Positions 45,101 through 48,100 of a stretch of 64,000 nt of DNA are shown piece after piece. The position numbers are program-made. The DNA is from Escherichia coli (GTDB lineage: Bacteria > Pseudomonadota > Gammaproteobacteria > Enterobacterales > Enterobacteriaceae): NCBI RefSeq assembly GCF_044324785.1, contig NZ_CP172128.1. One strand, 5' to 3'. The stretch's first letter is position 1; every line of letters starts with the position of its first letter.

Positions 45101-48100
45101 GGGTGCGCGACGTCGTGCGCCTGGGACGCATTCCCCACCACTCTCCGTTCTCAAACTGGAGCGCTCAGGATGACGAAGCGATTGCCGCCGCGCTGCAGCG
45201 GGTAGCGATGCTGGAGAAAAGCGAACAGGGATGGTTAAGCCTCTCCGGCGGCGAGCGGCAGCGGGTGCATATCGCCCGCGCGCTGGCGCAGAGCCCGAGC
45301 GAAATCCTGCTGGATGAGCCGACCAACCATCTGGATATACACCATCAGATGCAGTTAATGCAGTTGATCAGCGAGCTGCCGGTAACCAGCATTGTGGCCA
45401 TTCACGATCTTAACCATGCCGCGATGTTCTGCGATTCGCTGATCGTGATGCAGCAGGGGCAGATCCTCGCCAGCGGGACGCCGGAGGAGATTTTGTCCGA
45501 AGCGCTGCTGTGGGACGTTTTCCGGGTGAAAACCAAAATCGAGATCTCCCCTTACCACGGCAAAAAGCACATTCATTTCATCGTTTAGGTTGGGCGGATA
45601 TGCCTCTTTTCTCCCTGCGCCCTGCGGCAACCCTCTGGCCTCCGGTGTTACTGGGAAGCCAGTTCGTTTTTAATATTGGCTTTTACGCGGTCGTACCTTT
45701 CCTCGCCCTCTTCCTGCGCGACGACATGCTGCTCTCAGGCGGACTTATCGGCCTGATCCTCGGGCTGCGTACCTTCTCCCAACAGGGGATGTTTATCCTC
45801 GGCGGGACGCTGGCCGACCGCTATGGCGCTAAGGCGATCATTCTCGCCGGCTGCGTCGTTCGCGTCGCCGGTTTTCTCCTGCTGGCGTGCGGGGCGTCGC
45901 TGTGGGCCATTATCCTTGGCGCCTGCCTGACCGGCGTCGGCGGCGCCCTGTTCTCCCCGTCGATAGAGGCCCTGCTGGCGCGGGCCGGTACCCACAGCCA
46001 GGCCAACGGGAAACGCAGCCGCGCCGAGTGGTTTGCGCTGTTTGCGGTATGCGGTGAACTGGGAGCGGTGATCGGCCCGGTGGCCGGAGGCGTGCTGAGC
46101 GGGATCGGCTTTCGACATATCGCCCTCGCCGGCGCGGGAATATTTCTTCTGGCGCTGGCGGTGCTCTTTTTCGGTCTGCCCGCCGACGGGCACACGACAA
46201 CAACGCGCAGACGAGTCCCATGGTGGACGCCTTTGCGCCAGCCGCGCTTTGTCGCGTTTATTCTCGCCTACAGCTCATGGCTGTTGAGCTACAACCAACT
46301 CTACCTCGCTCTGCCGGTGGAGATCCAACGTTCCGGCGGCCGCGAGCAGGATCTGGCGCCGCTCTTTATGCTGGCCTCGCTGTTGATTATCACCCTCCAG
46401 CTCCCTCTCGCCCGCTTCGCCCGGCGAATGGGCGCCGTGCGCATCCTGCCGGTGGGCTTTCTGCTGCTGTCGGCTTCCTTTGCCAGCGTGGCGTTATTCG
46501 CCGCCGCCCCACCCGCCGAAAGTTGGCTGCGGTTAATGCCGGCGGCTGGTTTTGTCACGCTGCTCACCCTCGGCCAGATGCTGTTAGTGCCCGCAGCCAA
46601 GGATCTGATCCCGCTGTTCGCCGAGGAGTCGACGCTGGGCGCCCACTACGGAGCGCTCGCCACCGCAGGAGGGTGCGCGGTGTTAGCCGGGAATTTACTG
46701 CTCGGTCATTTACTTGACCAGGCGCTCATTCCGTCGCCGCAGGCGGTTTATCCCTGGCTTCTGCTGGCGCTGTTTCCGCTGTGCAGCGCCGTCGCCCTGC
46801 GGGCGATCTGTCGCCCGCTGGCGGCAACATGACGCAGAGCGGGTAACAGCCCGCTCTGGAAGTGAACAGCTGGTATCCATATTTTCAGCTAATCCTTTAA
46901 CAAAGATCCTCAGCCCTGTTTAAACCCCGGCTTGCCGTTTTTGGCTCGCCATTCCTTCACTTCTTTTACGATACCTTCAGGACTGTCCTCACGGTCATCC
47001 CTTGGATAATAAATAAGATCAGAACCATCAGGGTGTTCAGCTAATCGACGAAATTCATCCACTAATTTATCGTCATCAGCCTCAGGGTGATGCTGCCAAC
47101 TTACTGATTTAGTATATGATGGTGTTTTTGAGGTGCTCCAGTGGCTTCTGTTTCTATCAGCTGTCCCTCCTGTTCAGCTACTGACGGGGTGGTGCGTAAC
47201 GGCAAAAGCACCGCCGGACATCAGCGCTATCTCTGCTCTCACTGCCGTAAAACATGGCAACTGCAGTTCACTTACACCGCTTCTCAACCCGGTACGCACC
47301 AGAAAATCATTGATATGGCCATGAATGGCGTTGGATGCCGGGCAACAGCCCGCATTATGGGCGTTGTCCTCAACACGATTTTACGTCACTTAAAAAACTC
47401 AGGCCGCAGTCGGTAACCTCGCGCATACAGCCGGGCAGTGACGTCATCGTCTGCGCGGAAATGGACGAACAGTGGGGCTATGTCGGGGCTAAATCGCGCC
47501 AGCGCTGGCTGTTTTACGCGTATGACAGGCTCCGGAAGACGGTTGTTGCGCACGTATTCGGTGAACGCACTATGGCGACGCTGGGGCGTCTTATGAGCCT
47601 GCTGTCACCCTTTGACGTGGTGATATGGATGACGGATGGCTGGCCGCTGTATGAATCCCGCCTGAAGGGAAAGCTGCACGTAATCAGCAAGCGATATACG
47701 CAGCGAATTGAGCGGCATAACCTGAATCTGAGGCAGCACCTGGCACGGCTGGGACGGAAGTCGCTGTCGTTCTCAAAATCGGTGGAGCTGCATGACAAAG
47801 TCATCGGGCATTATCTGAACATAAAACACTATCAATAAGTTGGAGTCATTACCCGAACTAAAGAGGGGATGGCTGTTGCCCGTTCAAAGGGAAAATTGAA
47901 AGGAAAACAGCCTAAATTATCTGAAAAACAACAAAAAGAACTATGCCGTATGCGTGATACTGGCCAGTACTCTATCAGCGATCTAGCGGAACTATTTACC
48001 GTCTCGCGTGCAACGGTTTATCGAACACTTTCACGAGGACAAAAATGACCGATTTAACTACACAGCAACATCTAGTAAAAATTGTCCATGATTATGCCTG

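Follow-up and report, generated by a model that had tools for sequence, protein, structure and literature searches.

The DNase-type immunity proteins Im2, Im7, Im8, and Im9 belong to the family PF01320 (Colicin_Pyocin), a complete member of which is a four-helix protein of ~85 amino acids encoded with its own start codon. Helix I contributes to the hydrophobic core in Im7 and Im9, and the residues that bind the DNase are carried by helices II and III, with the conserved DNase-binding motif D-L-I-Y-Y-P located in helix III (Asp51, Tyr54, and Tyr55 in Im9 numbering). The closest uninterrupted relative of the locus described here is found on the plasmid pAPEC-O2-ColV (NC_007675), where a gene for an intact 85-amino-acid “bacteriocin immunity protein” (WP_000412701.1) follows eitD and is directly preceded by a 111-codon “HNH endonuclease” ORF (WP_011402682.1). 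The protein family of this homologue is very large, with 545 cluster representatives at E ≤ 1e-20 that are named “bacteriocin immunity protein” or “colicin-E2 immunity protein” in their sources. The site downstream of eitD is occupied by the immunity gene on ColV/IncF- and IncK-type Escherichia coli plasmids, with eitABCD as its conserved neighbor. Literature searches on eitABCD or eitD in combination with colicin and immunity returned APEC reviews of a general kind and genome comparisons in which eitABCD is listed, and this immunity gene is described in none of the papers returned.

The window analyzed in this study (a stretch of 64,000 nucleotides from E. coli) carries a truncated immunity gene at the corresponding site, between eitD and a complete copy of IS1 (table 1). 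The remnant is very probably a non-functional pseudogene that retains the last 57 codons of an 85-codon Im2-like gene, left by a module that was eroded stepwise and in which an IS1-associated deletion or recombination would have been the last event.

Table 1. Features at and around the immunity gene remnant, with positions in the window.
Feature	Position	Strand	Basis
eitABCD siderophore/iron ABC transport cluster	42833..46832	+	ORFs; eitA, eitC, and eitD are named in the annotation of an identical record
Hairpin AGAGCGGG-CTGTTA-CCCGCTCT	46836..46857		Read from the sequence; in the 77-bp spacer that separates eitD from the convergent immunity gene
3' remnant of a colicin-DNase immunity gene, pseudogene	46910..47085	-	Translation; Im2 and PF01320 matches; PGAP pseudogene at the same bases
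IS1A, complete, 768 bp	47086..47853	+	Inverted repeat with 0 mismatches; insA and insB ORFs at 47141-47416 and 47335-47838
Serine recombinase pseudogene, last 64 of 191 codons (C-terminal, HTH part)	47854..48048	+	Homology to the intact gene; PGAP pseudogene
Second IS1 copy, inverted	50674..51441	-	Identical to the first copy at 768/768 bases

Translation of the minus strand of 46910-47083 gives 57 codons followed by a stop, corresponding to codons 29-85 and the stop codon of the intact gene, and the two adjacent bases (47084-47085) belong to codon 28. In a phmmer search against all PDB chains, the best match of the remnant was to residues 30-86 of the 86-residue colicin E2 immunity protein (E = 6e-30), and further matches were obtained to Im7 (~1e-25), the pyocin S2 immunity protein (5e-21), Im9 (~1e-19), and Im8 (1e-18). 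A Pfam search returned PF01320 as the only family, with 90.9 bits (E = 5.5e-26, curated gathering cut-off 21.2 bits) over profile positions 29-82 of 82. Neither the helix III motif DLIYYP nor the C-terminal GFKQG is disrupted, and SDLIYYP is aligned to Im2 residues 50-56. The original prediction had read a reverse-strand peptide at this location as the C-terminal part of an Im-type protein that should resemble Im2, Im7, Im8, Im9, and the pyocin immunity proteins; the peptide lies inside the 57-codon translation, and every one of these proteins was matched (E = 6e-30 to 1e-18). Judged by these scores, the similarity is real, specific to the DNase-type immunity family, and far beyond chance; no observation speaks against the identification.

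Profile score and helix III motif place the remnant in the PF01320 family, but it contains only residues 29-85 of a complete protein and has no cognate HNH DNase toxin gene immediately upstream. Because only these residues remain and a proper start is missing, the remnant is classified as a pseudogene of the family and not as a functional member. Independently of the original prediction, PGAP labels the same bases in identical RefSeq records, including pF1022-2 (99.9% identical to the window over >20 kb) and TUM9803, as a pseudogene located between eitD and the IS1A transposase gene ([quoted passage not shown]).

The interval from eitD to IS1 (253 bp, 46833-47085, remnant and spacer) has counterparts of 98-100% identity on many plasmids of Escherichia and Shigella, in each case immediately downstream of the eitABCD cluster and convergent with it; in ~134 PLSDB records, at least 80% of this interval is covered. 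Three states of the locus can be told apart. State A is the arrangement of pAPEC-O2-ColV (coverage of the state A query is at least 80% in ~69 PLSDB records). Residues 28-109 of its HNH ORF align to DNase residues 52-133 of 134 of colicins E2 and E9 (E ~1e-28), with ~57% identity to the ColE2 DNase as counted from the alignment, and its first 27 codons consist of DNA that hundreds of plasmids carry beside IS91-family transposases. The homology switches to this IS91-associated DNA at query base ~505 (position ~7015 of the pAPEC-O2-ColV extract); the translocation and receptor-binding domains and the first 51 DNase residues were therefore already lost in state A. The product of this fusion ORF (6769-7104 of the pAPEC-O2-ColV extract) is annotated as “HNH endonuclease signature motif containing protein”; by its alignment, it is a colicin stub (codons 28-111, corresponding to DNase residues 52-133 and beyond) rather than a free-standing nuclease.

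State B is represented by the E. albertii plasmids pEA26_3 and pEA50_1, a Shigella flexneri plasmid, and E. coli TO124. Here the immunity gene is recognizable only from about codon 14 onward (…LEFVRK…); an unrelated 20-codon leader precedes this part and results in a chimeric ORF of 91 amino acids with a TTG start that adjoins a RelE/ParE module. This chimera (WP_000877662.1, 5078-5353 of the pEA26_3 extract and also present in other state B records) is called an intact 91-amino-acid “bacteriocin immunity protein” by RefSeq. Its first ~20 codons are unrelated DNA, and its DSPEG segment has a Pro-to-His change; it is probably a further pseudogene, taken for intact by the annotation. An intact colicin gene beside the immunity gene was found in none of pAPEC-O2-ColV, the two E. 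albertii plasmids, the S. flexneri plasmid, and E. coli TO124.

State C is the junction of the window and is present in 14 PLSDB plasmids, nearly all of them from chickens, and in 20 complete E. coli records of RefSeq (18 genomes), including two chromosomal copies. In these two (NZ_CP135671.1, 5194821-5195749, strain TUM9803; NZ_CM142764.1) the remnant/IS1 junction is integrated together with eitABCD, and in TUM9803 the cytochrome b562 region directly follows IS1, the segment with the recombinase remnant, the endonuclease/exonuclease/phosphatase (EEP) family gene, and IS1 being missing. Some further plasmids keep only a 78-bp spacer after eitD. Over the shared 253 bases, the window is identical to pAPEC-O2-ColV at 251 positions (99.2%) and carries the pEA26_3 base at both differing positions (46925 and 47072), whereas three other sites distinguish it from pEA26_3. 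The precursor of state C may have been either state A or state B, and the content that was deleted with IS1 is deduced from these relatives.

Within the window, eitD (45645-46832) converges on the remnant. The hairpin in the intervening spacer has a perfect 8-bp stem and a 6-nt loop and is conserved in all three locus states; it lacks a T-run on either strand and was not called by the terminator scan, and it may serve as a bidirectional element of transcription or RNA stability. On the other side of IS1, the recombinase remnant is followed by the EEP family gene (minus strand, 48308-49171). A copy of IS2 (~1.33 kb, 49196-50523, InsC and InsD ORFs at 49239-49649 and 49607-50512) lies just upstream of the EEP family gene and is absent from the otherwise 99.9% identical pF1022-2; the alignment blocks on its two sides share a few bases, as would fit a short target duplication. 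The two 100% identical, inverted IS1 copies bracket the segment with the recombinase remnant and the EEP family gene together with this IS2. Further away, as metabolic cargo of the plasmid, a sugar-utilization cluster (alpha-galactosidase, MFS transporter, GH32 hydrolase, and carbohydrate porin) and a cluster of fdrA, DUF1116, carbamate kinase, and cytosine permease genes each occupy one of the two regions ~25600-35300 and ~52000-61000 (approximate coordinates, mapped from the pF1022-2 annotation via alignment offsets), near which many IS elements, a group II intron, and a truncated IncI1-type nikB are located.

The terminal inverted repeat of IS1 (GGTGATGCTGCCAACTTACTGAT, 0 mismatches) starts at 47086, so the end that the original prediction had assigned to the remnant at IS1 is the exact junction. 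In the alignment, homology to the uninterrupted locus of pAPEC-O2-ColV extends to the base before it, inside codon 28 (ACT) of the 85-codon gene. A loss of the 5' part is thereby borne out, at 28 of 85 codons amounting to about one third of the gene and not to the half that had been proposed. The adjoining element has the length, the terminal inverted repeats, and the overlapping insA and insB genes of IS1, and is annotated in records identical to the window as an IS1A-family transposase with a programmed frameshift. No 9-bp target-site duplication was found around it, as the left flank (CAGCCTCAG) and the right flank (CGAACTAAA) differ, and the flanks of the second copy (CGCGAATTA and CAAGGGGCC) match neither each other nor the flanks of the first copy in any pairing. 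The lack of a duplication at both copies implies a rearrangement after or during transposition, and the absence of a duplication in any pairing shows the segment bracketed by the two copies to be the product of several rearrangements. The recombinase gene at the right end of IS1 is missing its first 127 codons, and homology of the window to the intact 576-bp gene in pLH50-c-A (NZ_CP100501.1) begins exactly at the first base after IS1. The recombinase gene is also intact in a Providencia rettgeri plasmid. When the missing 5' part of the immunity gene and the HNH stub were searched against the whole 64-kb window (blastn with word size 7, tblastn), only chance-level matches were obtained, and a displaced 5' half elsewhere in the window was rejected on these grounds; neither HNH nor colicin sequence was detected by tblastn in any part of the window. 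Since a target duplication is lacking, an unrelated truncated gene lies opposite, and the 5' part is absent from the window, the junction points to an IS1-mediated deletion or recombination and not to a plain insertion.

A simple insertion of IS1 into an intact immunity gene would leave the rest of the gene (and the colicin gene) beyond IS1 or beyond an IS1-bounded segment. IS1 does abut the break exactly, and the second, inverted copy only 2.8 kb away could suggest a composite unit, but neither copy has a 9-bp duplication in direct, composite, or inversion pairings, the far sides are occupied by the recombinase remnant and by DNA of the cytochrome b562 region, and the missing part gives nothing above chance in the window. 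A simple insertion is thus refuted for the window and extremely unlikely, and the original claim stands with respect to the involvement of IS1 but not to the mode of its action. A composite transposon or an inversion by the two inverted copies was also considered and was rejected as a simple explanation because no pairing of the 9-bp flanks fits. A still smaller, practically negligible probability is assigned to the remnant being a chance ORF or a member of another immunity class (RNase-type or pore-former immunity), a reading that nothing favors and that is refuted in view of the strength of the Im2 match, the specificity of the PF01320 match, and the HNH DNase stub directly upstream of the intact homologue.

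The proposed pseudogene status also has to be weighed against residual expression, by which a peptide of helices II-IV, started at a GTG at 47062 or produced by read-through, would give partial protection against an E2-like DNase colicin. No stop codon interrupts the frame upstream into IS1 as far as 47173, the GTG is the sole in-frame start and leaves an intact ORF of 50 codons, the binding determinants of helices II and III are kept, and the remnant is 99-100% conserved among its carriers. Against this, no Shine-Dalgarno sequence was found at a workable distance from the GTG (the nearest GAGG is ~17 nt upstream, which is too far), a promoter scan of 46700-47400 found no promoter-like site on the minus strand, and a start at the GTG would drop the first eight retained residues. 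A stable fold is unlikely given the place of helix I in the hydrophobic core of Im7 and Im9, and the carriers, 99.9% identical over >20 kb, share a recent common origin that accounts for the conservation. Residual expression with partial protection is therefore very unlikely. The transposase genes of IS1 are oriented away from the remnant, and read-through from the minus-strand EEP family gene across IS1 may be a conceivable route of expression. Lacking a promoter, a ribosome binding site, a start codon, and helix I, the remnant most likely makes no protein, and the fragment, even if translated, should not fold despite the retention of helices II and III.

The sequences compared here suggest a history of stepwise loss. 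As a member of this family, and by what is established for Im proteins, the ancestral protein would have formed a very tight complex with the HNH DNase domain of an E2-like colicin and blocked it in the producer cell. In a first step, the colicin gene would have been cut down to a stub of DNase residues 52-133 by IS91-family-associated DNA, a stage that is preserved in pAPEC-O2-ColV. In a second step, in the lineage of the window, an IS1 deletion or recombination would have taken codons 1-28 of the immunity gene and everything upstream, joining the remnant via IS1 to the truncated recombinase gene; we infer this order of events from the locus states. The original prediction had the insertion of IS1 removing any colicin gene, which is probably incorrect: the closest uninterrupted loci lack a complete colicin gene and have either an 83-codon HNH stub or a RelE/ParE neighbor. 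As the closest uninterrupted relatives (pAPEC-O2-ColV type) have only the HNH stub, the colicin gene had probably gone before IS1 arrived, and the loss due to IS1 was most likely limited to 28 immunity codons and, at most, a colicin stub. Across the plasmids compared, the bacteriocin cassette is decaying and has been truncated repeatedly from its 5' side. The clustering of differences from Im2 in helix II and the low identity of the stub to ColE2 indicate that the lost cognate toxin was E2-like but distinct.

An alternative outlook, to which we give little credence, is that the intact WP_000412701.1 is a working orphan immunity gene that guards carriers of ColV plasmids (in the poultry gut) against an E2-like colicin, or that the helix II-IV fragment of the remnant binds the DNase somewhat, given read-through. 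If WP_000412701.1 does work as an orphan immunity gene, the repeated independent truncations (at about codon 14 in state B, at codon 28 in state C, and down to the spacer) would mark relaxed selection. In the preferred reading, the remnant is an already known, ordinary pseudogene that was made by IS activity and is annotated in public records, and it adds no new biology. It provides an example of bacteriocin modules on large virulence plasmids that erode via successive IS events (IS91-family, then IS1), and its exact junction can mark the lineage of one group of eitABCD plasmids associated with poultry.

Compared with Im2 (PDB 2NO8, 2WPT, and 3U43), the retained part agrees with Im2 residues 30-86 at 49 of its 57 positions (~86%, counted from the alignment), and several of the eight differences fall in the variable helix II segment (Im2 positions 31, 34, 38, 41, and 44), but the remnant lacks residues 1-28 including helix I, the start codon, and a promoter. 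As in the colicin E operons, the intact 85-amino-acid homologue of pAPEC-O2-ColV is located directly after an HNH DNase coding sequence; in contrast to these operons, no lysis gene follows the eit-linked immunity gene and eitD converges on it instead. The window shares the locus and the eitABCD neighbor with the pAPEC-O2-ColV module, but the HNH stub and immunity codons 1-28 that the reference keeps within its 85-amino-acid ORF and upstream of it are gone. Adjacent deletion mediated by IS1 and recombination between IS1 copies are classical behavior of this element. The junction in the window resembles these cases in that two unrelated truncated genes are linked by a complete IS1 that has no target duplication and a second, identical IS1 copy is close by; it shows nothing unusual in comparison, and, from the records examined, the pathway may have been either of the two.
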